Source of the DNA: Fistulifera solaris
Taxonomy: Eukaryota
Assembly (NCBI GenBank): GCA_030295235.1
Contig: AP026162.1
Location: 930,001-994,000, forward strand
Length of the DNA: 64,000 nucleotides
Direction: 5' to 3'
In this document: in pieces, positions 6,889-61,469 of the stretch
Numbering within the stretch: position 1 is the first letter of the stretch
Layout of the letters: each line of letters begins with the position of its first letter
Translations under genes and position numbers: made by a program
The notes under the pieces: generated by a model
Told to the model about the DNA's origin: nothing
What the model saw: the letters and a program-made list of their open reading frames with translations, nothing else
Database searches by the model: none

Positions 6889-8686
6889 TTTGGATTTCGG
6901 CGACGTCCTTGCGACCGTTGTTATTGATTTTCAACTTCAGATGCTTTAATAGTCGAAAGCGAGGTGCATCTCGAAGTCTTGAAGATTGCACCGCTCTCGT
7001 CGTCTCTTCTCCGTGTACGTTTTTGGTCTGTCCGCATTGGTAATCGTGAACTTCAAGGAATTTCTCGCTCAACCGCTATGACCTTAAAGTACAATGTGAT
7101 ATGTCAATACAGCTTTGATATTCTCCGCAATAGATTCACGGTTGCAGACAAGACTACACTATATATATTTCACGACCATCTCATTTCGTGGTAGTTCTAT
7201 TATCAAGCGAACTGTGCAGTCGAACTCATCAAATTACCCGTGAGAAAATCACTTAGTACAAAATAAACAAGCCTTTATTCACTTTAACCTGGCATGTAGA
7301 GAAAACCGAATGCGATAATAAGAATAAAGTGAAACGTTGTATGCCTGTTTTCTTTCGGGTCTCATTTGCATTATGCCTATCGCCTATATCATGTTAAAAA
7401 AGTATAGAAACCTATACCTACTATAATCATAACTGTACGAATTGAAGCCAGCTGTCAAAGGTAAATCTTTTTTTTCTTTTAAGCCTCACTTCGGTAGGTT
7501 TAAAGGGAGTCTTGAGCATTGGAACTGCGTCCGAAATTGTACACACTGAGTGATTTCGTTCACGGTCCGCGAGAAAACGAGATTTTTGGACGTTCCGACT
7601 GTTTTCACGTAGCAAATTTTATAATGTGAGATGGTGGGGCGGTCGTGTGTCTGTCTTGTCGTCGCTTTTCACTTGCTATTTGACTGTTTGACTGACTCAG
7701 CTTCCTCGCGCGCGCTCTTTGCCTCGGATGCAAGACAGTTACCGGGTAGTTTCTCCGTGCTAAGGTTATGAAAACGCAAATTCGATTCAGGCTAAGAGCC
7801 CAGCGCCAGCTAACTCCCGTCCCGGAAAAAGATAATCAATACAACCAAAGACGTATCGCTTGACGAAAGAAGTTATTGATCAATGATCAATCAATTTTCT
7901 TAAGGTTACCGACAGATTCGATGATCATCAAAGTTGTCGCTGGCGGGAAAGTGAAGGAGATTTGACAATTGTTTCATGTAGGCATGTAGACTGTAAACCC
8001 GTCATTCTTGTCACAAACCGTGTTCCTTTTGTTTGTGCTACTCCGAAATCGCGTTAGACATCAAGCTCAGTCTTCGAGACCAAAGAAATTCACATCGTAA
8101 ACAATCATTCCCTTCAGGTCTTCCGCTCTTCTTTATTCGAGTGTTACTCTTTAACTTGTTAGGAAAGAAAAGGAACGATCCTTCCTTTTGAGAGAATGCA
8201 AACGAGCAGAATGCCATCCGAAAATACTGACAGACGCAAAGTGGCCAAGACTACATGTCAGTCATGAATCTATGGTTTTCCGAGCCATACTTCTATCCAA
8301 CCCTTCGGTCGTTGTCGTTCCGCAAGATTAGTCGACTGAATTAGTTCCCATTGCATTCTCGAAAATGCACGCAATGATGCATGATGTTAAAAAGTCTTGG
8401 GGATCGTTGTCTTTTACACGACTCCATTTTTTTAGTCACGAAGCAATAAGAAGAGACAGCAGACTCTCTAGCTAGATACCCTCTATTCAATGACTGTTAT
8501 TGACGTCTTTGACACAAACCTAATAGACTGTCCTTTAAAACATTTGCAATTTTCGTTAAAATCATCTTACGTTGAGACGTCTTGGGGCTTGGGGATCGTT
8601 GCCTTCACATTGACTATAGACCTGGGTGTAGGCGAAACCCGACAAAGACGGCTTATAGTCACGAGACATGAATGAATGTTGCGAAT

Positions 8687-8688
<2 letters not shown>

Positions 8689-8727
<39 letters not shown>
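8689..8727. repeat. 39 nt poly-T tract followed by an AT-rich patch to ~8790
   Basis: Seen directly. Confidence 0.9.
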
Positions 8728-8728
<1 letters not shown>

Positions 8729-8930
8729 GATGGTCAAAGAATTTTTTTTTTGTTAGTCTATTTATTTTTAAAATTAAAAAAAAATTGCGCTTATTGTTTA
8801 CGCCTAGCATAGGTCCATTGACGCTACCTTGTACCAGTCTAACGCTGTTTACACCTATCACGAAATATTTCTGAAGCTGTTTAAGTGCCTTTAATTGTCT
8901 ATGTTGGCGCAGTAATCTGGGCAAGGAAAC

Positions 8931-13105: not shown

Positions 13106-13469
13106 CGCTCAGTAAATGCCTCTTCTTTCAATCTATTGACAGTCTAGGATACTTTTAATGAGCAAGGCGACTATGAAAGAGTTCGCTGTTTGTGGGGTTT
13201 TAATAATTTTCGAAGAGAATCGAATGATGTGTTGCAGGAGGAGTGTTTGTGATGCAATAAAAAAGGTACGGTCCGGAATCGTGAATGAAAATCAAGTAGG
13301 AGCAGTCACGAGTGTTTTGCCGATTGACAGACGGGCCACACGTAAGGACGTATAATACTTCGATCACACAACGTTCACATGCCCCTGCTTTCCAAACATC
13401 GCTAATACATGCCATGAAACAATATTCGACTTTGATCTATCATTGAAATATGAAAAAGTAGAACAGATA

Positions 13470-13751
13470 CAACGCTTCCAGTGTCTACGCATATTTTACG
13501 TAGCCGCCGTAGGAAATTTATCTCTGTAGGGGTACCCGGATATTAAGTATTTTCGCTATCATCCAATTCTCATATTTACAGGTACAGTCACCGATGTCAA
13601 CGTTTTTTTTGTCCGAGGTATTCTCTTCGTATCAGGAAGCAATAAAAGCCATCGTTTCGAAAACAAAACGTTGATGGAACGAATGATGCAACGCTTCGAA
13701 TGTCAACGTGATTTCACGTAGCTCTCGTAGGGAAATTTATCGACAGAGGGG
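13470..13751 (-). repeat. Dispersed inverted relative of the 428 bp satellite (both conserved blocks, different middle)
   Basis: CTTCCAGTGTCTACG..CGTAGGAAATTTATCTCTGTAGGG and GATTTCACGTAGCTCTCGTAGGGAAATTTATCGACAGAGGGG are reverse complements of the satellite blocks. Confidence 0.9.
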
Positions 13752-14049
13752 AAATCACACCATTGTTTGCGTCTCAATACCGCTACGATTGTGAGTAGAT
13801 ACTGTCTTATTAAGAAGTCTTTTGACGGTTTCTTATGATGTAATTGTAAACCATGTTAGGATGATTTGAAATTATTATTTAGCGTTATCGCATGATTTGA
13901 ACGTTGGCATGAATGTTGGCGTCAAATAAAAACAACCAAAGACTTTTGGTAAAGGTAGCTGGTACTTTCCATTCAAGAAGTCGTCTCAAAACCATAATTA
14001 ACAGAGTAACTGATTCATCACCTCCAAAAGAGAGGATTCTACGCGGCAA

Positions 14050-15585: not shown

Positions 15586-15684
15586 CTAATGCTTGGAATG
15601 TAAAAAGTATTTTCTTATGAATGTAGTGGCTGAACATAATACGGAGTACTTCGCACCTTAGAAATTCCCTTTCTCCTCTCAATC

Positions 15685-16467
15685 TCACAAGTCTAAATTA
15701 TTTGTTCGAAATGTTCCCCGTGAAGTAGACTTTACGAAATCTGTTGCCATTGTTTGGACTTGCATGAGACCATCCTTCAATTTATCCATTGCCCTGAGTT
15801 TGGTGCGATAATTGGGGTCCATCTGAATGATATCCTGATAATTGCGGCCGGCACTACATCCAGCATCAGTAGCTCTCAACAAAACCAACTCCTCCGTGGC
15901 TTGATTTTTGCTATTCGCAATCCAACGCGTCGTGTCTGGATGTATAACAAACGCATCTCCTGCTTTGACTTCGGGTGTGTGAGAAACCCCATACTGCGAG
16001 AAGCACCCTGTCCCAGAGAGCACGTAGTAGAATTCGACACCAAGAGACCTTGTCGGAGGAATTTCACGTCCCGGATGTAATGATATGACTGAAACATTCA
16101 GTGACGATGTTTGGGCGTTCTCCGGACTAAGAATAAGACGAATGGACCCGTTCTCAGTTTCCGTCAGGACCTGCCCCGAAGTGCAGAGTTTAGCAGCTTC
16201 GTACCAGTTCGTTTCACGTTCCTCGTCTCTCCAGATAGAATACCAAGTGTATCTCAGTCGCTCGTGGATTCGAAGCTGCGTGACAGCAGCGTTGTACAGA
16301 AGAGACAATCCTATACCTAACACAGCCCCGGAAAGAAACACACGGTCCGCCCTATCCATCATACCCGAACCGGTTTCTGAGAAACCACTATAGGACGTTT
16401 TCTTTTGATCTTTGCTTGTCGTCGCAGAGAGGGCAATGGCTAACGCCGATAACACAAGGCTCCACAT
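15685..16467 (-). CDS. Cupin-domain protein with N-terminal hydrophobic segments
   Basis: EFYYVLSGTG....EVKAGDAFVIHP...RWIAN cupin motifs. Confidence 0.8.
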   Translation of the reverse strand: MWSLVLSALAIALSATTSKDQKKTSYSGFSETGSGMMDRADRVFLSGAVLGIGLSLLYNAAVTQLRIHERLRYTWYSIWRDEERETNWYEAAKLCTSGQVLTETENGSIRLILSPENAQTSSLNVSVISLHPGREIPPTRSLGVEFYYVLSGTGCFSQYGVSHTPEVKAGDAFVIHPDTTRWIANSKNQATEELVLLRATDAGCSAGRNYQDIIQMDPNYRTKLRAMDKLKDGLMQVQTMATDFVKSTSRGTFRTNNLDL

Positions 16468-17131
16468 TCTTATTTCTCTTGGATGGTTGAGATTTCGTGA
16501 TGATGATGATTGTAGTTGCTGCTATTCGTAGAGCATTCGAAGATTGACACAACGAAGGCACATCAACATGGTGGTCGTGTGTCAACTGTCAAAACATCAT
16601 GCTCATGCGGGCGATATTTTTGATAGTTCTCCAGAATTCTATCCGCCCACTTTCAACATCGCAGCGGCAATCGTAAAAAAAAGTAATCTTCACTTAGGTC
16701 TATAGTAAAAATTACTATGGTTCCAAAGTGTTGTCCGTTTTCGCCAAGATTGGTTTTAGTCATGAGACGGGTTTGGAAACGGTGGCGATGCAACAACGAC
16801 AACGTGCGACAATGACAAAGCGGAGCAACAAATAGCATACATTCTATACGACGTTGTCTCTTCAACACTTCTGGCTGTAAATGATGCACTGGTGCGACAA
16901 CCCATAACAGCGGCGCCCTTGTGCCACTTCAGGATCTAGATTCCTCCGCCAAGTATCAGCGACTAGCTCTATAACAACCGGATAAATTCTGACGTTAGTA
17001 CAGCCACGTTCTAGCCGTAACTCAGTCCACAACTGGTATCAATTACCGGTACACGAGCACGAAACAAGTACCACCCGATCGGATTTCTCATCACAGCCCA
17101 TGTATGTATTACCCGGAGTAATTTTTTGAGC

Positions 17132-19317
17132 CTAACGCATTCTCCGAAGTACCAGCACAAGCCTGCTTTTTCGTTCTGCATGACTACCGCCACCGCTGCG
17201 CCATAAGCGATCAAAATAGCTGGCTCCTCCTTCGGATGTAGGATCATAGGGAACATGCCCTATTTGCTCATTGGGTTGACCTTCAAAAAGCTCTACCGTC
17301 TCTGTCCCCGAACTGAAAGAATCAATTTTGTGAAAACCGCCTTTACTCAGTGCAATACTAGATTCTGACTTGAGGCGTACGCCTTCCTTTCCTAACACTA
17401 ATATTGCTCGTAGTGCTGTCGTCGATAACAACCGTGCGTACCAACGATTATCGGTCACGATAACAATTCTTCCACTTGCCTTTAGACGTTTCGCCATCGA
17501 TATCATGGTAGCGGAGTTCAGCATGTGTGCTGGTTCAGCTCCACCGTCGACTACAGCGCCAAGTTCGCTCTGGTTCTCACCGAATGTTTGGGTCGGTGGT
17601 TCAGGATGATTGGCGAAAAAAGTGGAGATTGATCCTTCTTGTGGAAGGCGTAAGTCCAGAAAGCTTCCAGCATCTGATCCTACTACGCAAAGTCTCTTAC
17701 TGGAAGACGAATCTAAACCCAGCATCCCCTTCGCAAAGATTTGAGCAACACGATCAGCTCGCAGCTCGACAGCGATATGATTTCGGTCTTGATGCATGCG
17801 GGTCTGTCTTACAATCCAATCACCAAATCCAGCCCCTATCTCAACGTCGATCGGTAGGTTCGGGTTGTCAAAGATTTGACTCAAAATCAACGTGCCTTGA
17901 GAACTGACTGCACTAGCCGTATTTTTGCCATCAGTAAGGATAGGCTTTGTGTGTGATGGATGTCTATTTTGAGGAGTCGATTGCATCACTTCCGCCAATC
18001 CGAAAGAATACCAGATAGGAGACGAAACGTCAGATACAACACTTTTACCGGAGGTTTTAAGCATATCTGTTGTTCCTCCTCCACCGAAGTAAAACAATCG
18101 CTTCAAAAGTCCACAACGAACTTGCTCCAATAGATCACCCTTGTCTTTCAGTTTTCGAAGCCTAACCAATTCTTTAGCCTCGTTCTCAATCTCAGAAAGT
18201 CTATGATTGCGATAAGTATTGTTGGAAGATTTTCGTTGAAAAGCGCCTTCGTCTGATACCTTCTTCCAAGCGCGTTTCCCTCCGACAGCCTGCTGCTTTT
18301 TCAGTTGTCGTTTGGAAACAGGAGATTCCGATTCAGCACCATTCATTTCTTCCACGAGCAACGAACGTGAAAGCTTGCAAGCGCTAAACACCCGTTGACA
18401 TGCGGTCCACATATTATCAAAGTCCCCGAATAATGCATACGCTCTCGCCAGGGCGATATTTACGACAGCAAGGCTTTCTAACGATGCCTGATCTCCGCCA
18501 CTGATGCTTGCTTTTCCTTTGATCACAATTTCATACGCACTTTGAAGTTGCTTGATGCGTTCCAGGGCATCTTCGGTCCGAAGAGCTTGACAAAGAATCA
18601 CGGCAGAGTATTCATAAGAAGAAACATCAAGATGATCGGCACCAACATTCTTGCAAAGAGTTCCCATGCGTCTTCACTCGAAACGACACCCCCACATAAT
18701 TCGTCACTCTTTCCCAAAACAGACGTCGAAGCAGTCCACAAACACCCCCTTAATAATGTATTCAGCGTCCGAACGTTAGGTTTCTCCTTCTCCGACTTGC
18801 TCATTTTCCTAAACAATTGCATTGCCTGTAGAATCCGACCCGAATGAGCGTATGCTTTCATCAGTGCGGTGTTCGTTTCCACGTTACAATCGTCCCCTAA
18901 AGCACCAACAACCTTTTCTGCTTCTTCTACATTACCGCATCGCGCACAGCAGTCTATTAGGATACAAGCATGGTGAGTATCTCGGATGAAATCGTTCTTG
19001 TGACTTCGATACAAGTGTAAGGCTTCATCCAGTCGTTTACGGCGTGAGCAATCCTGCAACTGTTTTGTCAGCTCGATTGCTTCAGCGGAAAGAGGTTTCC
19101 TATTGTGAAATCTTTGTCGCTTTGGATTCGAATTTGTCTTATCATGATTGCGGTCGTCCGAACGTCGCTTTCGAGACTCTGATCGAGGTGGGCGTTCTTT
19201 GACGGAAATCTTTTCCGGCTTCCGCGCTTTTGCCTGGTCATCCTCCTCCTTACTAATTAGAGAGGATGATTTCGTTTTCTTAGCCAAGGCTGATTTGAAC
19301 AATTCTCCAAACACCAT
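17132..19317 (-). CDS. PPR repeats fused to TrmB-like tRNA (guanine-N7) methyltransferase; frameshift near 18650
   Basis: PPR: ILIDCCARCGNVEEAE, NTALMKAYAHSGRILQAMQLF, PNVRTLNTLLRGC. TrmB: VEIGAGFGDW, AVELRADRV, NHPEPP, VTDN. Confidence 0.85.
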
Positions 19318-20038
19318 TCTTTCTTATCTTGTTCGTAGATGGCAAAATGGCTGCATTTTTTGTGTTGTCGTGCCGCGATGTCGGCTGGCGGGTGAAAAAT
19401 CAAGAGCGAAGCGACCGACGACCAGACATCAATCCATTGTACTATCGACTGAAGTGTTGGTTTACGAGATCACGAACCACGACTGAGTGTCAGTCATGAA
19501 GCAATAAAAATCCGAGCTAGACTGTTGACCTTACCTAACTTCCCTTCGCTTTGCAAGCAATCAGCAATTTATTAATGCTTGTTATCACTATCCACTTATT
19601 ATTATAGTACATACAGACATTCCTGACGCTCGTGGTATTGTAAATTTACTATATTTTTTTTAGCAGAATCGCTACGACTCCATTTCAGTCATGAGCCATG
19701 AACAATTTTCTTCTCATTCGAACTGCTAGTCTAATAGGTCTAACTATCCATCGATTTTCCCGCAATATAGGAAAGCTATTTCCTTTATCGTTATTGTCTT
19801 TAATACCAGGAGCGATGTAGTATTCTTTTATACAAAGTAGCATAGGTAATGTAGGTCATTTTTCTTCCTGCGATGGTTGATCGATAATCTAGCAGTAAGT
19901 AAGTTTTATCTTTCAAAAAGACATGGGTATACGTTTGAACCAAAAACTTATTGCTTAAGGAATTAATCTATATTGCTTTATGCGAATAGTAATCCTGTTC
20001 AGGCACCAACAAACGATACCAGGTAACCCCTTAACATG

Positions 20039-21122
20039 TTACGCGTTTCTCTCCATTGATTCCGTGAAATCATCGAAAACCGATGATTGTCGATAGGTGA
20101 TCTCTCTAGCTTCTGCGATGATTCTTTGCACGAGATCTTCTACTAGAGGAATATCGTGAATCATACCATGCGATTGCCCAATAAACTGCACTCCTTCGTC
20201 CAACTTCCCGTCTACGGTTGCTGCCATGAGTGCTTCTGTAGCAGCTCCAAACTGCGCAACCATAAACATCTTGTCCCACTGAGCAATGAGGCCAGGGAGA
20301 ACTTTCCATAGCGGCAATTTCATCTTATCAGCAGCCTGGAACGCTCGATATATTGTTGTTCCTATGAATGGTTTGGACTTCATAAGTTTTTCGGATCTTG
20401 GTGTTTTCAGAACGCGAGCTGGTATGCCGTCAAAATTGCTTCCATAAATTGTATTTGATTCGTTCGATTTTACGATGGCTTCCTTGACCGCATGCGCCAA
20501 AGGGCTCTCTTGTGTTGTTGCAAATCGCGACCCCATCGCTACCGCATCCGCCCCCAACGCTAGCGCTCCGGCCAAACCTCTTCCATTCGCAAATCCCCCT
20601 GCCGCAACAATCGGTATTTCAGGAAAATGCTCCGCTATAGCGGGGATTAGTACCAGCGAGGTCACGTCCCCTCCATGTGCCGCTGCTTCGTGTCCGGTCA
20701 CCATGACGGCGTCCGCTCCTGCTTCAATAGCGGCTGCGGCATGTTTTTTTGTTTGTGACTGTCGACAGTATTTTTCCTCCATAACTGTGTGCAGCATTTG
20801 CTATCCAATCTGCTTTACCAAGACTGATATTGATGATGGGGACTTGCTCGTCGAGAGCAACTTGTGCATTCTCCTTGGCTCCGGGCATGAGCAATGTAGC
20901 CCCGATTCCGAAGGGTTTATCCGTCGCTGTTCGAATGCGTCGTATAGCTTCTCGTGTTTCGGATGCCGTCAGAGGACCCGTCGCCAAAATTCCGACCCCT
21001 CCTGCATTCGAGACAGCAGCCACCAGCTCCGGCGTTGATATCCAGCTCATACCGGGTAAGACCAGAGGATAGCGGCATCCAAAAAGCCGGGTGATTCTTG
21101 TACGAACAGCAGGTTGTGACAT
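20039..21122 (-). CDS. Nitronate monooxygenase / FabK-like flavoprotein; frameshift near 20745
   Basis: YPLVLPGMSWIS.PELVAAVSNAGGVG, GHEAAAHGG, AAGGFANGRGLAGALALGADAVAMGSRF. Confidence 0.9.
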
Positions 21123-21605
21123 TTTATGACTAAACGGCCTTTTCGGTTAGCGTATTTTGTGAATTGTGATTTGCTAGTGGATGATTCAATTCGATATTAT
21201 TGAAATGACTGACATGTAGTTTGACATCGAAAACATGACGGCCAATATTTTTCGTTTTGTTCTTTTTGCGTTATTCTTCTCTTTCATTCGACAGCCAAAA
21301 GATACTATAGCATTCTGCAGACGGTACGACATCTTCGTTATACATGATGACTGATAGTATCCGACCTCCAACCGTAATGTTCGCTTTCGCTTGGAGTGTG
21401 GCGCGCCATAACCACGAAAGGCGTCCGCCGATGGCTAAAATTATCGAAGCAGCTGCACTTTTCGTTTCCTCGTCGTCTTTCGTGTGGTTTCTTCCCTCCG
21501 AAAACTCCAAACAAAGGTGCTGACGTCGTAAAAGCCATCTGTTTCGCCTCTTCAGACCCACATTTGCTTGGATCTCAACCGCTTTACAACTAGAATAGAA
21601 ATATC

Positions 21606-23473
21606 ATGTTCGGAGGAGGAGGACGAAAGCGCCGCGATGAGCCGCAATCGCTTTCTCAAGCGATGCAACCCGAAAATCCGCCGACCGGCGGTCGCAGCAA
21701 TGTCACAGGATTCGATCCCGAAGGATTGGAACGCGCCGCAAAGGCCGCACGCGACCTCGACAACAGTCGAAACGCCCAAGCGGCGATTGAATTGATCAAA
21801 ACGCAAGAAACGACCAAACAGCATGAAGCCGCCGCGAAACGCGCCGAAATGGACGCGTATGCCCAACAGATGCGCGCACAGAACATTGAAAAGGAAGCCG
21901 ATGAAGCACGCAAGACGCTTGATGCGCAGACACAACATGATAAGCACCGTATGGAATATCAAGATCAGCTGGAGCGGAAGAGACAGGTGGACATGCTCAA
22001 TGCGCAAAAATACATGCAAGAGTAAGTTATTATCGATTTTGGTCGAAAATTATCATGCTGAAAACATGGTCTCATTTTTCGGATTGATCTGGTCTTCTTC
22101 AGGGAGCAGCTGAAGAAACAGGAAGAAATTGCGGCTCGACAAGAAGAGATGCGTCGCAAGACGGCGGAATACGAGGCGGAGTTGCGCACAAAGACCGAAA
22201 TTGCCAAAGCACGAGCCGAAACTGAAGGAAGAATTGCTCAAGAGCGTCAAAATCATGATCTAATTTTTAGAAAAAGTCCGATTGGAAGCAAAAGAACACC
22301 GAGACACGGTCATACAGGCTATTACGGATGGTGGAAAAATCTTAGGAGAGGGCCTATCATCGTACCTTGAAGACACGGAAAAATTACGCAATACTACCTT
22401 GACAATCACTGGAATTGCTGTTGGTGTTTATACTGCTCGTACCAGCATCGGGGTTGCAGGACGGTTTGTGGAAGCTCGCTTGGGTAAGCCTAGCTTGGTT
22501 CGTGAGACATCTCGACTATCTGCGGGGCAATTTTTGCGTCAGCCGTTGGCATCGACGCAACGTCTTTTTGGGATGGGTCGAAAGGATAACGATGCTTTGA
22601 AGGGAATTGTGTTGGAGAATAGCTTGGATACGCAACTTCGAAAGATTGCAGTGTCAACGGCAAACACGAAAAGAATCGTGCTCCGTTCCGCCATTTACTA
22701 CTTCACGGTAAGTAACATCTCAGTCTGTCCCTGCAACAGTAAATTGTTTACTCAACTTTTTGTTGATCAGGTCCTCCGGGAACTGGAAAGACAATGTTCG
22801 CGCGCAGCTTAGCTGAGTCTTCTGGTTTAGATTATGCCATCTTGACGGGAGGTGATATTGCTCCTTTGGGTCGTGATGCTGTTACCGAGTTGCACAAGTT
22901 GTTTGATTGGGCGAAAACGAGTCGCAAAGGCCTCCTTGTGTTTGTTGACGAAGCGGATGCCTTTTTGCAGTCACGTGAGACAGCCCGCATATCAGAAGAC
23001 CAAAGGAATGCATTGAATGCTTTTCTGTTTCGTACAGGAACAGAGAGTGATCAGTTCATGGTAGTTTATGCTAGTAACCAGCCCTCTCAGTTCGATGAAG
23101 CCGTCATGGACCGAGTGGATGAAATGGTAGAATTCAGACTCCCCGGTGAAGATGAGCGCCGCGCAATGATTGCACTGTATATTGAGAAGTATTTGTTGAA
23201 CCCACCGGGACGTTTGACAAAGAAGGTGACCACCGAAAATATTGCCGACGCCGAAATCGAAAGAGTTGTCAAGGAAACCGAGGGGTTTTCTGGACGAGCT
23301 ATCTCGAAACTAGCTATTGCATGGCAAGCAGCTGCCTACGGAACAGAGGGCGCAGTACTGGATCGCGACACTTTCTTCAGTACCGTTGAACACCACAAAA
23401 GAGTATGCTAACAAAGGAGGAATGGTTGAAGCACGCCGCAGAACGGGCTCAACTGCTCACGGCAGATCGTTAA
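21606..23473 (+). CDS. ATAD3: Mitochondrial AAA ATPase ATAD3; introns 22022-22102 and 22708-22770; homopolymer frameshifts near 22270, 22670 and 23400
   Basis: GFDPEGLERAAKAAR, coiled coil, GKPSLVRETSR, spliced GPPGTGKT Walker A, FVDEADAF Walker B. Confidence 0.95.
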
Positions 23474-23483
23474 GATAATTGAA

Positions 23484-24896: not shown

Positions 24897-25880
24897 GTTT
24901 GTTGTTAACGTATCACTTCATGATAATCTACGGAGCAATGCCGAATAATTCGATTGTGTTTGTTTTTGTTTGCTTCATCGCGTCATGTCGTTTTTTTTAC
25001 TCCCAGAAAAGCCGCATCGTCGTCACGCGACACGCGACACGTGAACGCTCTCATGCTGACGTCGACTATACGATGGGTAGTAGGATAATTACGAGTCACA
25101 GTCTCTTATTTTGGTCACGAGTCTAAAAGAGGGTCCAGTCTGTCCGTGCGTCCTGAGGGACATTTTCGATACACGCTCCGACATGTCGCAAAGAGAAGTA
25201 CCGCTCCGAGCTCAAGACTACTTTTCGATACACATCGCTGTACAACCTACTTTAAAAAGCTACTGTGCCAAACCGTGCATTTTTGCTCAAAAATGCAAGG
25301 GGGTTGCCCATGATTTTGGCTCATTCTTTTGCACCCACTTCATTCGATCGCAACAATCGATTTTGGGACGGAAAACCTTTCTTTTCATGGCATTCTTTTT
25401 ATGATGCTATCACTCTTTATCAATAAGATGGTATAATGACGAAAATTACGCAAAAGGCGCTCAATTTACTGTTAAATGCTGCATAATTTGACACTCTTGC
25501 CTTTAATACGCGTCGACCGCGGCCCGTTGTTGTGACAAAGATCGCCTGAATTAAAGTCGACTTGCGTGGTCAATCATCAGTCAGCAATCATCGATCTTCT
25601 AGACTTCCCAAAGTATGTTTCTCTTTCACCATCTACGTAGAGGTGGCCGTCATCGACAATCTGTTAATCATGGGTAGATCAAATAATACAAGTTGGCATG
25701 AATTGGTGCTTGTCGTTTATGTCAGAAGCACCCCCAGACAACATGTTTAACGAAGGATCCGCGCTCTGGTCATCGAACTACCTGACTATCAAATAAAATT
25801 GGCAAGGCGAGCTTACAACAAGCGGGTCGGATCAACGAATGAATACAGATAGATTTAGAAAGATTTGGGAGCTCTGAATA

Positions 25881-26614
25881 ATGCCAACTTTCTTTATGAC
25901 AAAATACATTGACCAGCGATTTCAAAAAGACGACGTAGTGAATGACCATGTCGCATTCGTCAATGCAGCCAGCAGTCTAAGCGCAATTTCTTACGGAATT
26001 CCGCCTGCAGGTCAAATGGAGACACGGCGAGTTGCAAGCAACATGATTCCCGCCATGATAACTACCACAGCCCTGGTGTCGGGCTTCTCGTGTATCGAGC
26101 TACTCAAACTGGCGTAGAGTCGTCTACCAATTCGAAGCTATCGAAATGGTTTCATCAATTCAGCTCTTCCTTTCTTGCCTTCCAGCTGAGCCTGTTTCGA
26201 TCTACAAAGGGCGTTCGTGCACAATATGGGACTGTTTAACGGTATGGGAAAGTAACGTGTCAGCGAAGGGAGGTTTCACGATGAGATCTATGATGTGAAG
26301 ACTAAACAAGGTGATATCCGTTAACAGCGAAAATAGATAATTCTTCTTTTTCGTTGGGGCCTTCTCTCCGTTACGCCAGTTCCCTGCATGAAGACGACGA
26401 AATAATTGACGAATGATTGTGGGAAGTAATAGGGAATGCGCTTGATGAGAACCATTTGCTCGACCATGAAAATTTTGGTGGAGAGGACACTTCCGGTCGG
26501 GCTAGTTCGCTCATGGAAAATGTCACCGTAAATTTTACCTTGACAGTCCTAGATGAAGATGGAGAGAACATCGAGCTGCCCGCGGTACCGGTTGTCCGGC
26601 ACTCTGGCGACTAG
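25881..26614 (+). pseudogene. Decayed C-terminal fragment of ubiquitin-activating enzyme E1
   Basis: FQKDDVVNDHVAFVNAASSLSAISYGIPP....TRRVASNMIPAMITTTALVSGFSCIELLK, then stops; ends DEDGENIELPAV. Confidence 0.85.
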
Positions 26615-27967
26615 CTAGACCCTTTTCACTTCCATTTTGATTAAAGCGAAGAAAGGGGAGAAAGGAAAATCTATGGGACCGTGTTCATTTTTGACCATCA
26701 GCAGCGAAAGCTTCGTCAATGAAATGTCACGCATTACCTTCCAATCTGTCGTTTTCATCGCATGGTCTGTGAAATAAATCCATCTTAATAATCCTTTGGG
26801 CAAGGGTACAAATCAGTCTAATTAGACAGACTCGAAATCTTTGAAAAAACAATTGCGTTCGCAACACGGTAATATCTATGACAAAAGGCTCCGGCCTTCT
26901 TTAAGGATGTCTTAAGGATGTCTAGAAATGGATCGGACGTCGTAAAGATAGTATCATCATGCGGTCCGGCTTGAGAGGTCAGATGTCTTCAGAGGCGATT
27001 GCCTTTTAACATAAGACTAGACCTATAGAACGAAAGAGAAAGCACATGACACCGGCAGCAACTCAACAACAAGTACTAGGCGTTTGGGACTTGGATCCAA
27101 TTCACTGTTGAACACGTTGTTCGAGTAGTGAAACAAGAGATAGAACAGGAGAACGATGCGGTGAATACAGCGATTGTTGCAGCTGCTATTGTCGGTGTAA
27201 CGCCCCAATGTCCTAAAATTCTTTGCAATCGCGAACAACGGATTAGTTACCGGCGGACTTACATACAATGAGCAGGATTTGAATTGGAAGCACATGACTT
27301 TACCCACTAGTGACCCGTTACAGATAGCACGAGCAATAGAGCACAAGTCGATTGACGCAACTTGGTAAAACGCCAAGACACATTCAATGTTTTCCTTCGG
27401 ACACTGACGAGGTACAAAATGGATGAAGCCATGCTTGGCCACTTGCTGCACATGATAGTAGCGATTTGGGTACTGCTCCTGACCATCTCATGTGACAAGG
27501 TGACAAGACAATTGCCAGGTGTGGTCAAGCGTGACTTAGTTTGGAATACGGATGTTCGGAATATGGCGAACGACATGGCGGATTGGGTCGCCGACGCCTT
27601 TGTATACGCCATCAATGAAGGGGGTATGGGTACGCGTTGTCACTGGAAGTGCATCTACTGGTAGCGAGCGAACTAAAAAGGCACCGCAGCGCTGCGTTTT
27701 GTCGGTGGTAGCCCCCGCATCGATGAAACGTTTTCGGGCTAAGAACTCATTTGATTCTGAAAACCCTGTTTAGTAGACACATTTCATCGTGATTGAGTTA
27801 GCCGAACTGCTAGAAATGCGCCCATGAACAGCAATAAAAGGTGTATTTCTTGAAGACTAGACGAGCTATTTGGCATTGCAATTTGTTATTTGTGGCAGCG
27901 TCTTGACGTTTTGTCCGAAATAACTTATAGAAGCATCAAGAGACATGAATATTGGACGATGAAATAG

Positions 27968-28234
27968 ATGAGAATGTCGATGCACGAATGCACGACCGCC
28001 TATCGCGCTGTGAAGCAGCGAGAAATACTACAACAAGTTGAATTGATAGCGATATTTGGAGCCGGCGCAGTGAGTCTTTCTTGTATCATGTTATTGATAG
28101 GGGCAAAGAAAATTGTGGCAACTGATTTGTCGAACGACGCACTCGACTTGACAATGAAGCCTGGTGTTAAGACCGATGAATCCCACAGTTTCGGGATCTG
28201 GACTTGTATGGCTCGTCTTCAGCATATCTTCTAA
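27968..28234 (+). pseudogene. Fragment of Zn-binding (MDR) dehydrogenase
   Basis: TTAYRAV.....IAIFGAGAVSLSCIM..IGAKKIVATDLSNDALDL Rossmann segment lacking both ends. Confidence 0.7.
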
Positions 28235-29382
28235 CGATAGCCTGCGGCGAATTTGTGTCCGCTTCATCATCCGCAGTAAACGTATCGTTGCTTTATTTCA
28301 TCAACTATCTGGGAAGAAACTAATTCTCGGTATCAAATCTTTCTAAATCTATCTGTATTCATTCGTTGATCCGACCCGCTTGTTGTAAGCTCGCCTTGCC
28401 AATTTTATTTGATAGTCAGGTAGTTCGATGACCAGAGCGCGGATCCTTCGTTAAACATGTTGTCTGGGGGTGCTTCTGACATAAACGACAAGCACCAATT
28501 CATGCCAACTTGTGTTATTTGATCTACCCATGATTAACAGATTGTCGATGACGGCCACCTCTACGTAGATGGTGAAAGAGAAACATACTTTGGGAAGTCT
28601 AGAAGATCGATGATTGCTGACTGATGATTGACCACGCAAGTCGACTTTAATTCAGGCGATCTTTGTCACAACAACGGGCCGCGGTCGACGCGTATTAAAG
28701 GCAAGAGTGTCAAATTATGCAGCATTTAACAGTAAATTGAGCGCCTTTTGCGTAATTTTCGTCGTTATACCATCTTATTGATAAAGAGTGATAGCATCAT
28801 AAAAAGAATGCCATGCAAAGAAAGGTTTTCCGTCCCAAAATCGATTGTTGCGATCGAATGAAGTGGGTGCAAAAGAATGAGCCAAAATCGTGGGTAACCC
28901 CCTTGCATTTTTGAGCAAAAATGCACGGTTTGGCACAGTAGCTTTTTAAAGTAGGTTGTACAGCGATGTGTATCGAAAAGTAGTCTTGAGCTCGGAGCGG
29001 TACTTCTCTTTTGCGACATGTCGGAGCGTGTATCGAAAATGTCCCTCAGGACGCACGGACAGACTGGGCCCTCTTTTGATTCGTGACTAAAAGACGTCAA
29101 AAGCCAAAACATTTCCCGGGACACACGTAGCTCCCAGTAGGATATGTACGTGCAATGGGCTTGCATTATTGTCCTTTTTTTTGCCTGCCCCATCTTCCGA
29201 AGGTTATTAACAACTATCTTTGACCTTTTCCCATTATTTATCGTTGCAACTCGCTTTTGAATTCGAGGTGCAATCAAAGGAATTTGGATTGAAGTAAAGG
29301 TTTTGAATTTGTTAGGTCGTTTCCTTTTCCGCATCCGCAACGGTGCAGCAAAAACAGTGTTTTTTTAAGTACAAGAAAAAAA

Positions 29383-31756: not shown

Positions 31757-32230
31757 GTACAGTTCCTACTGGACTCTACGTGTGTCCCGCGAACGACTTG
31801 CACGTCTTTTAGTCACGAACCTCCAAAGAGGGTCCAGTCTGTCCGTGCGTCCTAGGACGAAATTCTGCAAACACACTGCGACATCCAATGCCGTTTCGAT
31901 ACCGCTACGAGGAAATGCTACAACTTGAGCTTACACTAGAAATTTGTACAATTTAGGCCTAGTGTCGAAACAGGGCCCAAAATGCAAGGCATTTGCCCAT
32001 GAAAAAAAGCGTGAAATAAAAACTTGGCTCATTATTTGTTGTCATTGAGCGACCTTTTAAAGGCTATTCCATCGATTCATGTCGTTTCTTTCATAAATAC
32101 TGTCATTCCTTCTACAGATGAAAATATTGTTGCGTGGAATGCCGTCAGAAACGTTCCGTTCTTACTTTTTAATGATGTTATGGCATATCAAATTCGATGC
32201 TTGTCGCGCGACGGCCCGCGGTAGTGCAAT
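31757..32230 (+). mobile_element. Diverged solo copy of the GAGGG TIR family (core starts 31828; right limit uncertain)
   Basis: GAGGGTCCAGTCTGTCCGTGCGTCCT identical to 25129; AAAATGCAAGG..TGCCCATGA at a similar offset; 31757-31820 matches the reverse complement of 29080-29150. Confidence 0.7.
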
Positions 32231-36011: not shown

Positions 36012-36539
36012 GGCTCAATCGAACGAAGAAATTCGAGCGAAGCGTCTAAAAATGACAGAATGTGCCTTTTGCCGAACTGATTTCAAACCAGCCTTGCAAC
36101 GCCTCCATACGCTAGCGATTTTCGCCTCTCAGTACTTGCTTCAATACCGAGTAATTGCTGTCTGGTCGCCTTGCCCTGTTTGCTTTTCAGGCACCGTCTT
36201 GTAGACAAAAACAATAATGAGAGCGGAACACAAAAATAAAAAGCGTCCGACGGCGACGTCCGAAACTCGTCCTCCTGCTCTGGGCGAGTATCTCGCAATG
36301 TGTAGTGAGTGACGAATGAGAGTTTCCTGCGCGCGCGCACGCCGCTCGGCATTATACCGAAGGAACGAGAACACTGGGTCAGTATTCACAAACTTATCCT
36401 TTTATCATTACAAATGGAGGCACTTCTAATATGCGCTATGCAATGCTTTCGTTCTAAGAATAATTTAGATCGGTTCCACTAGCTTTAGTCTCCCTCGGGC
36501 GGAATTTTTGGTTCGTGACTGAAAACCAGTCGTGGCAAA

Positions 36540-36836
36540 GTTGTTTCCCACGACGGCTACGTGAAATTCACGTAGACACTGGAAGCGTTGTATATTTTTA
36601 TGTTTATATATTTCAGTGATAAACAAAAATTGATTATTGCTCAATGACAGACATGCATTAGCGATGATGGACAGAGTATTGTTGCCATTGGTGTCCGAAA
36701 GACGCGAATAATGGTGTGATCGAAATTACGCAATCTCCGTGTTACCATCTGTCGATAAATTTTACTACGAGAGCTACGTGAAATACGTAGCCATTCGAAG
36801 CGGTGCAACATTGTTCCATCAACGTTTTGTTTTCGA
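36540..36836 (+). repeat. Dispersed relative of the 428 bp satellite (block B, divergent linker, block A)
   Basis: ACGACGGCTACGT..CGTAGACACTGGAAG, CATTGGTGTC..AAAGACGC..AATGGTGTGATCGAAATT, TCTGTCGATAAATTT..CTACGAGAGCTACGTGAAAT. Confidence 0.9.
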
Positions 36837-36840
36837 CTTG

Positions 36841-37800
36841 GTTGTTCGGTTCATGACTACTGTACAATCCAGTCTTGGCTGGCGTAAACCAACACTCCGT
36901 TTCATAGCGGAATTCAAGGTGTTGATCCTCGGATTATTTCGACGTGAAAATAAAAAACTCATTGTTGCGATTTTATCTACCCGTAATTGTTATCATATTC
37001 ACAGTTGAATGAAAATGGACGGATGCGAGAGACGCAAAAACAAAACTCTTTGTTGTTCGGTTCATGACTACCGTACAATCCAGTCTTGGCTGGCGTAAAC
37101 CAACACTCCGTTTCATAGTGGAATTCAAGGTGTCGATCCTCGGATTATTTCGACGTGAAAATAAAAGAACCTCTCAACAAATAGTTCAAATCATCTTTGC
37201 TGCGACTTTATTTACCCGTAATTATACTTATATTCGCAGTTGAATGACAATGGACGGATGCGAGAGACGCAAAACGGAACCCTTTGTTGTTCGGTTCATG
37301 ACTACTGTACAATCCAGTCTTGGCTGGCGTAAACTAACACTCCGTTTCATAGTGGTATTCAAGGTGTCGATCCTCGGATTATTTCGACGTGAAAATAAAA
37401 AACTCATTGTTGCGATTTTATCTACCCGTAATTGTTATCATATTCACAGTTGAATGAAAATGGACGGATGCGAGAGACGCAAAAACAAAACTCTTTGTTG
37501 TTCGGTTCATGACTACTGTACAATCCAGTCTTGGCTGTCGTAAACCAACACTCCGTTTCATAGTGGAATTCAAGGTGTCGATCCTCGGATTATTTCGACG
37601 TGAAAATAAAAGAACCTCTCAACAAATAGTTCAAATCATCTTTGCTGCGACTTTATTTACCCGTAATTATACTTATATTCGCAGTTGAATGACAATGGAC
37701 GGATGCGAGAGACGCAAAACGGAACCCTTTGTTGTTGGGTTCATGACTACCGTACAATCCAGTCTTGGCTGGCGTAAACCAACACCCCGCGTCATAGAAA
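36841..37800. repeat. Tandem array of alternating 211 and 234 bp monomers (445 bp higher-order unit)
   Basis: GTTGTTCGGTTCATGACTAC-type starts at 36841, 37052, 37286, 37497, 37731. Confidence 0.95.
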
Positions 37801-40808: not shown

Positions 40809-41575
40809 CTAATGCGCACCTTCTACTGCAGGCTCCAAACCAACTAGAGTGATACCCACACAAATGAGAAACACTCCGAACCAACCACGGAACGTCAGAA
40901 CCTCGTGCAGTAGACAAGCCCCTAGTACACAACCAAAGAAAACACTGCCGCCAATAATCGTCGGTATACTCTGCATCGCCTGTACTCCCAAACTTGAGAC
41001 AAAAAAGCTTAATATTTCGGCCGCTCCGACGGCAGCCCCCGCACAAACGGCCCATCGAATACCCGCCGCGTCCCAGTACAGAACATTCTCCTCATCTTCC
41101 GAGTTCTGAATGACAATATAAGCCAGTAAGAGAGAGCCCAGTAGAGCAGCAACAATCTGTAACACGACACCACCCAGGATTGGGTGGATGGAGGCGGATC
41201 CCTTTTAATGAAAATGTTGTAAAAGGCATACGCGAGTGCACAAAGAAGGGCGGGGCCGATCCACACCGCGAGAGGTGGCGATGCCACGGAATGCAGTGAA
41301 TCGGAAGAAACGAGTTCTACCAAGGTGCGAGGATCCATGGATCCTCCTTTTGTGGTGACTTTTGAACCGAACAACAGTCCATCTCTTTCTGCAGCAGCTC
41401 GTTGGAGAAGGCGCCGACCGGGTGAAGCTTGACTTTTCGGAGAGTCAAAGCGAAGACGACCGTACGCTAGGGACGGAGATGATGGCGCTTGTCTTAGAGA
41501 GCTATTGGAAGATCCCATGATGCTGAAACAGTTCCTCAAATATGGTTGATTGGATGGCTGTTGTCTGAGTTCCAA
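40809..41575 (-). CDS. EamA/DMT-superfamily small transporter; frameshift near 41205
   Basis: ALLCALAYAFYNIFIK...HPILGGVVLQIVAALLG and LHEVLTFRGWFGVFLICVGITLV; about 5 TM helices. Confidence 0.85.
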
Positions 41576-41973
41576 AATTTTGTCGGCACTTTCATTATTT
41601 TTTTTACATCACAGAAAAAGATCGGATGAGGGTGCGAAGGTGTCAATGGAGGGAGACCCTCCGGTACTAACTGTTTGCAAAAGAGTAGGTTTACAGGCAG
41701 AGGTGCATGATAAGAAACGTGTATATGTCTGCGTCTATTACTCTAGCACAACGTGTAGGCGACTTTTTTTCACGACTGGAATTCAGTCATGAGTCACCTT
41801 TCGTTTTCGCAGTTTGTTGCGATTATATTATCTCACACCAACCAAGGAGAACCGCAAGAGAAAATAATGTTCGAACGAAACAAAAGGTGTGAGACTACCT
41901 GTATGAATGATGCCTACGATGAAGTCCTCAATAACCGACGGGCACTGCTTTCCGTTCATTTCCTACTATTCGA

Positions 41974-54155: not shown

Positions 54156-54530
54156 TGTCGTTTTAAACGCGTCGTCTTGGACATGCGAGTATGAGGACGC
54201 CATTTGACGCAACGAACGTTTGCTTCTAAAGCAATTTGATCATAGCTTGATGCCACGCGAAGGGTCGACAGAAAAGCTCCAATTTGTTGCACAACTACGC
54301 AATCATCATCTCTTTGGTAGATATTTCGTCCAAGAGTTGAATGACCTCAGACCTCAGCCTAGTTACTCGTGATCGAAGCAATACAGTCGATTTGGTTCAT
54401 CGCAAGATGCTCCAAAAGGAGCGTGAACTTGACGTATAGCAATGCCTATTGTTTTAACCTAATTGCTATTTCTTAGCAAGAAAACGTTTCTTCGATTGTC
54501 TAATCTCAGCTTGCGAGAGTTTCTTGTACC

Positions 54531-55125
54531 GTCTGGACACGTTGTTGGGATCTTAACAGAATTATTATGTGCGCATTCCAGAAATTCAGGACACGGTGTT
54601 TGGGATCGTAACGTAAGAAAGTGCGTGTTCCAAAAATTCTGGAAAATGCATGTTTGGCCATACAGAAATTCTGTTGTGGTCCAGAATTCTGGACCAGCTA
54701 TTTTGATCTTACCAAAATGCTGTGCACGTTCCGAAACGTCTGAACACGTTGTTGGGATCTTAACAGAGTTATTATGTGCGCATTCCAGAAATTCAGGACA
54801 CGGTGTTTGGGATCGTAACGTAAGAAAGTGCGTGTTCCAAAAATTCTGGAAAATGCATGTTTGGCCATACAGAAATTCTGTTGTGGTCCAGAAATTATGG
54901 ACCAGCTATTTCCATACTACCAAAATTCTGTGCACGTTCCGAAACGTCTGGAACGTCTGGATAAGTTGTTTGGGATCTTAACACAATTATGTGCGCATTT
55001 CAGAAATTTCAGGAGACGGTGTTTTGGATCGTAACGTAAGAAAGTGCGTGTTCCAGAAATTCTGGAAAATGCATGTTTGGTCATACAGAAATTCTGTTGT
55101 GGTCCAGAAATTCTGGACCATTTTT
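54531..55125. repeat. Tandem array, ~207-218 bp unit (~2.8 copies) with ~35 bp CCAGAAATTCTGG-like subrepeats
   Basis: GGGATCTTAAC at 54547, 54754, 54972; near-identical interiors. Confidence 0.95.
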
Positions 55126-58148: not shown

Positions 58149-58234
58149 TCCGCTCGCTGCACATCAATCATTTCAATAACCTTCTAAGATCAATCTTATT
58201 AAACGAAGGAGCTTTCATAAGCTTCTTCTCCTCT

Positions 58235-58345
58235 CCGAAAGGTTAACAAGATAAAAAAAAAGGACAACAACGTTTTATTTATTCTGTGGTTCAGAAAATC
58301 TGGAAAATCGGTGTTTGCGATCCTACTGCTACAGAAATTCTGAGG
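58235..58345 (+). repeat. ~110 bp direct repeat, copy 1 (copy 2 at 62368-62476)
   Basis: CCGAAAGGTTAACAAGATA..AAAAGGACAACAACGTTTTATTTATTCTGT..CAGAAAATCTGGAAAATCGGTGTTTGCGATCCT..TACAGAAATTCTGAGG in both. Confidence 0.95.
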
Positions 58346-58365
58346 AAAAAATCCCCATGAGATGA

Positions 58366-61245
58366 GATGGTGTGAACGAAATTGAACAATATCCGGGTTG
58401 CCCCTCTGTCGATAAATTTCCTACGAGAGCTACGTGAAATCACGCAGATGTTCGAAGCGTTGCATTACTCGCTCCATCAAGTTTTTGTTTTCAAGTCGGT
58501 GGCAATTGTTGTTTTCCAATACGAAGCAAATACGGTGCGCAACAAAACGTTGACATCTGTGGACTGGAAACCCAAGAATGGGACGATGGCGAAAAAGGCA
58601 ATTTCCGGGTTTCCCTACAGAGATAAATTTCCTACGACGGCTACGTAACATACGCGTAGACACTGGAAGTGTTTAATCTTTCTACTGTTTCAAGTTTTAC
58701 TATCCAATCAAGGTCGATGATTGATGGTTTCATGGCTCGCATGAACCATGTTGGGTTAAGTATATTTGACATTGGTGTCCAAAAGACGCTTAAAATGGTG
58801 TGATCGAAATTGAACAATATCCGGGTTGCCCCTCTGTCGATAAATTTCCCTACGAGAGCTACGTGAAATCACGCAGATGTTCGAAGCGTTGCATTACTCG
58901 CTCCATCAATGTATTGCTTTCAAGTCGGTAGCAATTGTTGTTTTCCAATACGAAGCAAATACGGTGCGCAACAAAACGTTGACATCTGTGGACTGGAAAC
59001 CCAAGAATGGGACGATGGTGAAAAAGGCAATTTCCGGGTTCCCTACAGAGATAAATTTCCTACGACGGCTACGTAACATACGCGTAGACATTGGAAGTGT
59101 TTAATCTTTCTACTGTTTCAAGTTTTACTATCCAATCAAGGTCGATGATTGATGGTTTCATGGCTCGCATGAACCATGTTGGGTTAAGTATATTTGACAT
59201 TGGTGTCGAAAAGACGCTTAAAATGGTGTGATCGACATTGAACAATATCCGGGTTTCCCCTCTGTCGATAAATTTCCCTACGAGAGCTACGTGAAATCAC
59301 GTAGACGTTCGAAGCGTTGCATCACTCGCTCCATCAACGTTTTGTTTTCAAGTCGGTGGCAATTGTTGTTTTCCAATACGAAGCAAATACGGTGCGCAAC
59401 AAAACGTTGACATCTGTGGACTGGAAACCCAAGAATGGGACGATGGTGAAACAGGCAATTTCCGGGTTTCCCTACAGAGATAAATTTCCTACGACGGCTA
59501 CGTAACATACGCGTAGACACTGGAAGTGTTTAATCTTTCTACTGTTTCAAGTTTTACTATCCAATCAAGGTCGATGATTGATGGTTTCATGGCTCGCATG
59601 AACCATGTTGGGTTAAGTATATTTGACATTGGTGTCCAAAAGACGCTTAAAATGGTGTGATCGAAATTGAACAATATCCGGGTTGCCCCTCTGTCGATAA
59701 ATTTCCCTACGAGAGCTACGTGAAATCACGCAGATGTTCGAAGCGTTGCATTACTCGCTCCATCAATGTATTGCTTTCAAGTCGGTCGCAATTGTTGTTT
59801 TCCAATACGAAGCAAATACGGTGCGCAACAAAACGTTGACATCTGTGGACTGGAAACCCAAGAATGGGACGATGGTGAAAAAGGCAATTTCCGGGTTCCC
59901 TACAGAGATAAATTTCCTACGACGGCTACGTAACATACGCGTAGACACTGGAAGTGTTTAATCTTTCTATTGTTTCAAGTTTTACTATCCGATCAAGGTC
60001 GATGATTGATGGTTTCATGGCTCGCATGAACCATGTTGGGTTAAGTATATTTGACATTGGTGTCGAAAAGACGCTTAAAATGGTGTGATCGAAATTGAAC
60101 AATATCCGGGTTGCCCCTCTGTCGATAAATTTCCCTACGAGAGCTACGTGAAATCACGGAGACGTTCGAAGCGTTGCATCACTCGCTCCATCAACGTTTT
60201 GTTTTCAAGTCGGTGGCAATTGTTGTTTTCCAATACGAAGCAAATACGGTGCGCAACAAAACGTTGACATCTGTGGACTGGAAACCCAAGAATGGGACGA
60301 TGGCGAAAAAGGCAATTTCCGGGTTTCCCTACAGAGATAAATTTCCTACGACGGCTACGTAACATACGCGTAGACATTGGAAGTGTTTAATCTTTCTACT
60401 GTTTCAAGTTTTACTATCCAATCAAGGTCGATGATTGATGGTTTCATGGCTCGCATGAACCATGTTGGGTTAAGTATATTTGACATTGGTGTCCAAAAGA
60501 CGCTTAAAATGGTGTGATCGAAATTGAACAATATCCGGGTTGCCCCTCTGTCGATAAATTTCCCCACGAGAGCTAGGTGAAATCACGTAGACGGTCGAAG
60601 CGTTGCATTACTCGCTCCATCAATGTTTTGTTTTCAAGTCGGTGGCAATTGTTGTTTTCCAATACGAAGCAAATACGGTGCGCAACAAAACGTTGACATC
60701 TGTGGACTGGAAACCCAAGAATGGGACGATGGCGAAAAAGGCAATTTCCGGGTTTCCCTACAGAGATAAATTTCCTACGACGGCTACGTAACATACGCGT
60801 AGACACTGGAAGTGTTTAATCTTTCTATTGTTTCAAGTTTTACTATCCAATCAAGGTCGATGATTGATGGTTTCATGGCTCGCATGAACCATGTTGGGTT
60901 AAGTATATTTGACATTGGTGTCGAAAAGACGCTTAAAATGGTGTGATCGAAATTGAACAATATCCGGGTTGCCCCTCTGTCGATAAATTTCCCTACGAGA
61001 GCTACGTGAAATCACGTAGACGTTCGAAGCGTTGCATCACTCGCTCCATCAACGTTTTGTTTTCAAGTCGGTGGCAATTGTTGTTTTCCAATACGAAGCA
61101 AATACGGTGCGCAACAAAACGTTGACATCTGTGGACTGGAAACCCAAGAATGGGACGATGGTGAAACAGGCAATTTCCGGGTTCCCTACAGAGATAAATT
61201 TCCTACGACGGCTACGTAACATACGCGTAGACACTGGAAGTGTTT
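58366..61245. repeat. Satellite, 428-429 bp unit, ~6.7 copies, with 2-mer higher-order pattern
   Basis: ATGGTGTGA unit starts at ~58367, 58795, 59223, 59652, 60080, 60509, 60938; GTCCAAAA/GTCGAAAA alternate strictly. Confidence 0.98.
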
Positions 61246-61469
61246 CATCTTCCTAGTTCTGTCAATCGAATTGCGTTGTTTCATGAAAGCGTTGATTGCC
61301 AAAGAGAGACTGTCTTCCGCATCGGATCATCACCACGCCAAGTCTACTGTAGGCTCGAAGTGTAGACGACTTTTTGCAAGACTGAGTTTCAGTCATGAGG
61401 CGAATTTGAAAAATAACGTTTTCGCAGAAATGCGGCGCGTGCAGTGAAGGTGCGCGACGATCCGAAGCA

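Follow-up and report, generated by a model that had tools for sequence, protein, structure and literature searches.

Transposons and short dispersed repeats can carry transcription-factor or insulator sites with them and so distribute these through a genome. DNA transposons with terminal inverted repeats (TIRs) bear terminal or subterminal motifs that are bound by their transposase, for example the subterminal repeats of CACTA/En-Spm or Ac/Ds, whereas operator-type palindromes such as the CRP site, TGTGA-N6-TCACA, are bound by helix-turn-helix dimers, and non-autonomous elements derived from Helitrons or Helentrons contain central tandem repeats and a 3' stem-loop. This report deals with a recurrent bipartite palindrome of 22 nt, CAMGACT-N7-AGTCAYGA, found in a 64-kb stretch of the genome of the diatom Fistulifera solaris (contig AP026162.1 of assembly GCA_030295235.1, positions 930,001 to 994,000 of the forward strand; hereafter the window, numbered from its first letter). 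Judging from sequence comparison, dispersed modules, a 445-bp array, a 429-bp satellite related to them and the tips of a long-TIR element belong to one repeat family, of which the motif is what has been preserved best. It is read here, tentatively and with rather less than even confidence, as a repeat-borne putative binding site for a dimeric DNA-binding protein that would be relevant to the host.

The likeness to regulatory or insulator sites spread by transposons and repeats lies in a short conserved core within repeat copies scattered through gene-5' intergenic DNA, in subsets of copies that share their flanks by descent, and in the tie of the core to transposon ends and satellites; the difference is that the diatom motif is known here from sequence alone and that no match to it was found in print. 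Literature searches returned no described motif of this kind, a plain string search gave only primers and oligonucleotides, and none of GACTG, CAGTC and AGTCA was found in the passages of PMC11267843 that were examined. With the CRP-type operator the motif shares two short inverted arms, with centres about one helical turn apart, and a spacer that is fixed in length and free in sequence, whereas it differs in belonging to a eukaryotic nuclear genome, in the asymmetry of its arms and in having variants with other spacers. A likeness to Helitrons or Helentrons lies in the tandem arrays that adjoin the palindrome and in the satellite on the left-arm side of the motif in two cases, but a 3' hairpin of the Helitron type was not found. 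The predicted structures have little stability and do not agree among copies (-0.9 to -4.7 kcal/mol, z from +0.8 to -3.2, five of nine copies no better than shuffles), for which reason a hairpin or cruciform function was dropped as well; no compensatory change was seen in the arms among the copies. A fixed element terminus directly after the palindrome was rejected because homology runs on for 14-40 nt past it in three copies.

With 100 dinucleotide-preserving shuffles of the window as the chance model, the complete motif has five exact matches (8246+, 19478+, 36513-, 41771+ and 61377+), and none of the shuffles contains a single one (mean 0.00, maximum 0). The looser pattern GACT-N7-AGTC, with seven matches against a shuffle mean of 0.74, picks up 19673 as a sixth N7 copy; its remaining match, at 794, is part of an unrelated satellite and not the motif. 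When spacers from N0 to N20 were scanned, N7 gave seven matches (shuffle mean 0.85) and N12 also seven, the latter made up of the five array monomers, 31795 and 3993, and the remaining spacers gave 0-4 matches each (shuffle means 0.6-1.05). N7 is thus the peak once the array-driven N12 count is set aside, and the six N7 copies contain six different spacer 7-mers. Over-representation and a preferred spacer length, as in the site of a dimeric protein, were therefore both found, in agreement with the initial annotation made from the letters of this DNA. The variants it had listed, at 8417 (N10), 16745 (GATT arm, N6), 31792-31818 (N12) and in all five array monomers (N12), were recovered too, as were the half-sites at 13303, 25113 (GGTCACGA) and 29081, the first of which may be a chance match.

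For control outside the window the pattern CAMGACT-N4-KTCAGTCATGA was used, which has four copies in the 64 kb; prokaryote genomes totalling 596 billion bases contain just 18 matches. A scan of metagenome contigs with the motif pattern gave 37 loci, every one a single match with unrelated flanks and without BLAST match to the window, several of them being one bacterial contig repeated. Both scans are at chance level and are uninformative on other diatoms. In one of the metagenome contigs (L036:1003-1024, 28% G+C) the match is the final unit of a short tandem repeat of ~20-nt units of the CGACTAGATTTCAGT type; it has no relation to the window and probably arose by coincidence.

Copies of the motif are connected by local alignments that reach into their surroundings: 19415-19510 with an array monomer (67% over 98 nt), 41739-41793 with 61345-61399 (79%), 16713-16779 with 61345-61412 (69%), 41726-41792 with 36578-36513 (70%) and 8245-8291 with 19477-19523 (72%). 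Subsets of copies have 38-98 nt of flank homology in common. When 45 nt on each side were compared with shuffles, the motif itself being left out, three clusters emerged, {19478, array, 16745}, {41771, 61377, 36513}, and 8417 with 19478 on the downstream side. Upstream flanks reached z-scores as high as 4.7-7.6, most flank pairs scored between -2 and 2, that is, at shuffle level, and the copies at 8246 and 19673 had no significant partner on either side in this test. The upstream part of the cluster {41771, 61377, 36513} is satellite sequence.

A longer multi-box module is shared by five of the ten independent loci. These five have GTGT[AT]G as a second box 10-19 nt upstream of the left arm (background 0.00048 per position), and a third, ACTNT(A)G, stands a few bases further upstream in four dispersed copies and two array monomers. 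The unit measures 55-60 nt and reaches up to ~110 nt in one of the clusters, whose members have a recurring CGTTTTCGCAG downstream. Four contigs of single-copy depth from the organism's DNA run combine a left flank of the 16745 type with the 19673 copy from its left arm onward, separated by 3-9 other letters; the module is therefore present at further genomic loci in mixed forms. Membership in a satellite and dispersed-repeat family is seen in the common descent of flanks in subsets, in all five array monomers and in these four hybrid contigs. Since the copies are members of a repeat family with flanks in common, they are not independent promoter sites. An origin of the paired copies (8246/8417 and 19478/19673) as decayed array dimers was considered and dropped, because, despite the array-like spacing, the DNA between the motifs of one pair has no homology to that of the other (score 10.0, shuffle mean 10.3) and is unlike the 211/234-bp monomers.

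Within this family the arms are set apart from their surroundings. An alignment of 13 sequences, comprising all copies and variants, has a mean column identity of 41%, and the G, T, C, A, G and A of the right arm are invariant. All six N7 copies keep every constrained arm position (15/15), a result that is expected in about 0.5% of copies at a flank identity of ~70%. As the arms are kept where flanks are at shuffle level, they are far better preserved than what surrounds them. Two conserved arms, with a spacer between them that is constant in length and variable in sequence, would be explained most economically as the site of a dimeric protein.

The proposed course of events is as follows. The 22-nt core would be the conserved heart of short dispersed intergenic repeats of ~40-110 nt in F. 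solaris, a family that appears to be related by descent to two tandem arrays nearby and to the long-TIR element's tips. Repeat or transposon activity may have spread the copies to their present places in intergenic DNA on the 5' side of genes, and the arms would have been retained as the flanks decayed. The core would be recognised by a sequence-specific protein; with ~10-11 bp from centre to centre in GACTG-N5-CAGTC, this protein is predicted to bind as a dimer that contacts a single face of the helix, and the copies would most probably serve as upstream sites of a regulatory or boundary kind. We infer from these patterns that a protein binds, that selection acts on the arms and that there is some regulatory effect.

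The association with transposon ends centres on an element of 4 kb whose inverted terminal repeats of ~750 bp are 99% alike inward from 25125/29077. The alignment of its left and right ends opens at TTTT(G/A)GTCACGA (25109 / 29092), which is the right arm of the motif together with the preceding T-run. Inverted half-sites at both tips, as in a TIR transposon, were thus found for this one complete element only. A third, solitary end of the family (half-site at 31807-31818) has the same tip bases, and its likeness to the right end continues outward for 57 nt more; it has a left arm 12 nt away, and the left arm is missing from the other two of the three ends. GAGGG follows the half-site after ~9-10 nt at all three, so that the proximity of three GAGGG ends to the motif had been seen correctly, and the more general placement of the motif at repeat and transposon boundaries proved real at the TIR tips and the satellite pieces. 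The link between motif and element appears to be one of ~12 shared bases at the tips of a single family.

The summed contig depth at the element end is ~9x that of neighbouring bins (325 against ~36, in the organism's DNA run and a metagenome run), such depths being sums over contigs and not copy numbers, and 19 DNA contigs cease to match the window at 25114; the element end with its half-site is therefore repeated in the genome. The consensus of those contigs beyond 25114 resembles, by eye, the outer flank of the right end. The element family probably continues beyond the half-site on its outer side, and the end on the left in the window would be atypical. No target-site duplication was found at the boundaries tried (25109/29092, 25125/29077 and the module edges), nor was an empty palindromic target GTCAYGA...TCRTGAC found. 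An impression, gained by eye, that solo copies can be aligned downstream to the transposon tip was dropped, since in the shuffle test the 45 nt downstream of every solo copy scored z <= 2.3 against the three ends. The element is without a transposase gene, and its interior has no open reading frame (ORF) >154 aa. At 25878-26117 and 27016-27706 this interior includes part of a ubiquitin-activating enzyme (UBA_E1_SCCH, E = 1.8e-07) as well as stretches that are matched piecewise, with loose ends, by RNA contigs of other loci. This is what the capture of host gene fragments by a non-autonomous transposon would look like. The copies and associated features are collected in Table 1.

Table 1. Motif copies, variants, half-sites and associated repeats in the 64-kb window.
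Feature	Position	Strand	Remarks
Full motif, N7 (CAAGACT...AGTCATGA)	8246..8267	+	Significant flank homology only with the 19478 copy, 47 nt
N10 variant	8417..8441	+	171 bp downstream of the 8246 copy, direct orientation; downstream flank resembles that of the 19478 copy
Lone right-arm half-site CAGTCACGA	13303..13311	+	Beside one inverted 429-bp satellite monomer (13392-13767)
Four-box module ending in variant motif (CAAGATT, N6, AGTCATGA)	16714..16765	+	ATG of cupin gene 278 bp away
Four-box module with full N7 motif (19478-19499)	19441..19499	+	98-nt homology to array monomer
N7 copy, left arm TACGACT	19673..19694	+	195 bp from the 19478 copy, direct orientation
Left inverted terminal repeat of 4-kb element, outermost bases that align: TTTTGGTCACGA	25109..25120	+	
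Transposon-like 4-kb element with ~750-bp inverted terminal repeats	25109..29092	.	Fragment of ubiquitin-activating enzyme inside
TTTTAGTCACGA (minus-strand reading), tip of right inverted terminal repeat	29081..29092	-	Homology with the third end runs outward to 29149
Third, solitary end of the family of the 25109-29092 element, with N12 variant (31792-31818)	31757..31884	+	ATG of coatomer epsilon gene 95 bp away
Full N7 motif	36513..36534	-	Left-arm side abuts partial 429-bp satellite monomer (36544-36842)
445-bp (211+234) tandem array, 5 monomers	36837..37797	-	
N12 variants of the array	36851-36877, 37062-37088, 37296-37322, 37507-37533, 37741-37767	-	One per monomer, 5/5
Four-box module with full N7 motif (41771-41792)	41740..41792	+	Upstream part homologous to satellite-derived flank of the 36513 and 61377 copies
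429-bp satellite, 6.7 copies	58367..61255	+	Array stops ~120 bp short of the 61377 motif, on the side of the left arm
Four-box module with full N7 motif (61377-61398)	61346..61398	+	

The 429-bp satellite (13392-13767, 36544-36842 and 58367-61255) is a dimer of halves of ~211 and 218 bp. Its summed contig depth is ~80x that of neighbouring bins in two DNA runs, and many contigs end at its edges. At 36557-36575, within a satellite piece, a perfect 9+1+9 palindrome, CTACGTGAAATTCACGTAG, is present, and related CTACGTG words occur in every half-monomer of the satellite; two transposon ends also contain them in their outer part.

Genes are densely packed in the window, which is eukaryotic DNA of ~46% G+C and includes ordinary housekeeping genes and an HSF-type factor. 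About 54% of it lies in supported coding spans, and every full copy of the motif stands outside these ORF- or Pfam-supported spans, which agrees with the intergenic location first noticed. All full copies are in intergenic regions that contain a gene 5' end, and the motif recurs every 5-20 kb on the 5' side of genes. Besides the cupin and coatomer epsilon genes of Table 1, the ATG of the gene on the left-arm side is found at 161/356 bp (PPR-methyltransferase), 217 bp (GHMP kinase/ERG8-like), 295 bp (rhomboid) and 253 bp (ORF 41009-41518). The gene distances given initially were right (the motif lies 95-356 bp from ATGs), and ORF 41009-41518, which had been called EamA, could not be confirmed as such, having no Pfam match at E<=0.1. 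Six loci are in divergent intergenic regions and only four between tandem genes; in tandem regions all five sites stand in the half nearer the 5' end, a weak hint of a promoter-side position. Contigs of two runs, X3 and X4, which by their GT..AG joints and a poly(A) loose end behave like RNA and come from one study, give almost no cover over 19339-20005 and none over 8000-8666.

Some further observations concern the neighbourhood of these genes. Between the 8417 variant and the start of the cysteinyl-tRNA synthetase gene there is an unbroken run of 39 T (8689-8727), at which reads seem to be cut. On the plus strand, RNA contigs confirm two GT..AG introns of an AAA-ATPase gene, one of them with 81/88-nt alternatives, and its poly(A) site (22021-22110, 22706-22770 and 23504). 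A run labelled as a wetland metagenome (X2) holds 0.67 of the sampled words of 15600-25000, and long contigs that differ little from it, so that diatom DNA nearly identical to this stretch occurs in an environmental data set. A separate repeat family, with 67-bp and ~207-bp units, occurs at 273-805, 54530-55120, 58292-58345 and 62423-62626 and has palindromes such as TTCCAGAAAATCTGGAA, which resemble a heat-shock element with its alternating TTC/GAA units; the HSF-type gene is at 6163-6888.

Several points weigh against a host-relevant site for a dimeric protein. The copies were found through their arms, and the apparent selection on the arms is therefore in part a matter of ascertainment. The copies that were found independently give a weak test: the half-site is identical at 12/12 bases between two transposon ends that are 77% alike overall (p ~0.04), and the array monomers show 0 arm changes where 1.5 are expected. 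Four of the ten independent loci, with the N12 array counted once, have a spacer of 6, 10 or 12, which would turn the arms to different faces of the helix, so that a rigid dimer could not bind them. The palindrome itself is imperfect, as positions 3/5 never pair and the right arm is the longer one (KTCAGTCAYGA), and the 429-bp satellite monomer holds, by eye, only a degenerate version of the motif. The distance to genes is not significantly non-random, and the same orientation relative to the gene, which the initial annotation had reported, is not statistically distinguishable from chance. It is followed at three of the four informative tandem loci and, when the nearer 5' end is counted in divergent regions, at 7/10, neither being significant; between divergent genes either orientation faces a 5' end, and such a rule is therefore largely automatic. 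Lastly, the half-site at the transposon tips would fit a purely transposon-related function equally well.

Such a function is the main rival reading, possible though somewhat less likely. The right arm (TTTYAGTCAYGA) would be the terminal or subterminal transposase-binding sequence of the non-autonomous long-TIR family, and the full motifs and modules would be solo or abutted ends, or fragments, without a role for the host. This agrees with the position of the right arm and T-run, outermost in both ~750-bp repeats and at the third end, with the repetition of such an end in the genome (the contigs that stop at 25114 and the raised depth), and with the satellite pieces that adjoin the motif copies at 36513, 41771 and 61377. 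It sits poorly with the remaining copies, however. Just one inverted pair of half-sites flanks an element, most copies are away from any recognisable element end and are not significantly like the transposon tip on their downstream side, and the full-motif pairs (8246/8417, 19478/19673 and the array) are in direct orientation; two of the three ends lack the left arm, and no target-site duplication was seen at the boundaries tried. Neutral relics of transposition, moreover, should not hold 15/15 arm positions beside flanks that cannot be aligned. The same difficulty makes it unlikely that the motif is nothing but that part of an old dispersed repeat or satellite which has decayed least, selected by the search and recognised by no protein. 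Ascertainment via the arms, the clear common descent of subsets, the related arrays and satellite in the same window, the N6, N10 and N12 variants and the degenerate satellite version would all be expected of such a relic; six copies with all constrained arm positions and an exact N7, several of them between flanks at shuffle level, would not, given how rarely such preservation is expected at the flank identity observed, and the prominence of N7 in the spacer scan is free of the arm-ascertainment bias.

Two other explanations bear on the module and on the spacer. The unit of ACTNTAG, GTGTWG, CAMGACT and AGTCAYGA could be a promoter of the small nuclear RNA type, an upstream element that drives short unannotated transcripts, and near-fixed distances between boxes at five loci, A-rich stretches after the motif, a T8 run 155 nt downstream of the 19478 copy, and direct pairs and arrays spaced 171-234 bp point in this direction, the tandem units of 170-234 bp finding an explanation at the same time. 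This is nevertheless improbable, as the whole window has no Rfam match at gathering score and no transfer RNA, and thus no described RNA family beside the module, as there is no conservation between copies downstream of the motif, and as the T4-G-T5 run ~15 nt after the motif in the array would bring RNA polymerase III to an immediate halt. In its inverted arms and 7-bp spacer the motif is also similar to the core sites of recombinases. Strand exchange within the spacer by a tyrosine recombinase of the Crypton/DIRS type, integrating elements at the motif, had been put forward initially, and repeat boundaries do adjoin the motif, yet it can hardly be upheld: the six N7 spacers all differ, which leaves no common overlap region, and homology between copies spans the spacer instead of breaking there; the bounded element has ~750-bp inverted repeats with inverted half-sites and not direct core repeats at its junctions; and no integrase, recombinase or transposase domain was found among 52 ORF translations of the window scanned against Pfam. 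What stands of the earlier interpretation is the site of a dimeric protein, still the most economical proposal, and the link to repeat and transposon boundaries; independent promoter sites, a fixed orientation and a recombinase site are not supported.

The repeat-borne protein-binding site that is tentatively preferred here may be taken a step further, in what is for now a speculative and rather doubtful extension: the palindrome would be the site of a new diatom DNA-binding protein that marks promoter-side boundaries, binds as a dimer at the N7 sites, regulates or insulates the neighbouring genes and tethers long-TIR insertions and satellite growth. If true, this would explain why repeat ends lie within ~10 bp of the motif, and it would provide the first sequence-defined boundary or targeting element for diatom genomes, in which, to our knowledge, very few cis-acting DNA elements have been defined. 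Should the motif belong to transposition only, it would be an ordinary family signature, useful mainly for the annotation of repeats in the two subgenomes of this allodiploid alga. The 22-nt site is a concrete oligonucleotide for pull-down, DNA affinity purification sequencing (DAP-seq) and one-hybrid screens, which could yield a new transcription or boundary factor, or the DNA-binding protein of the transposon family.

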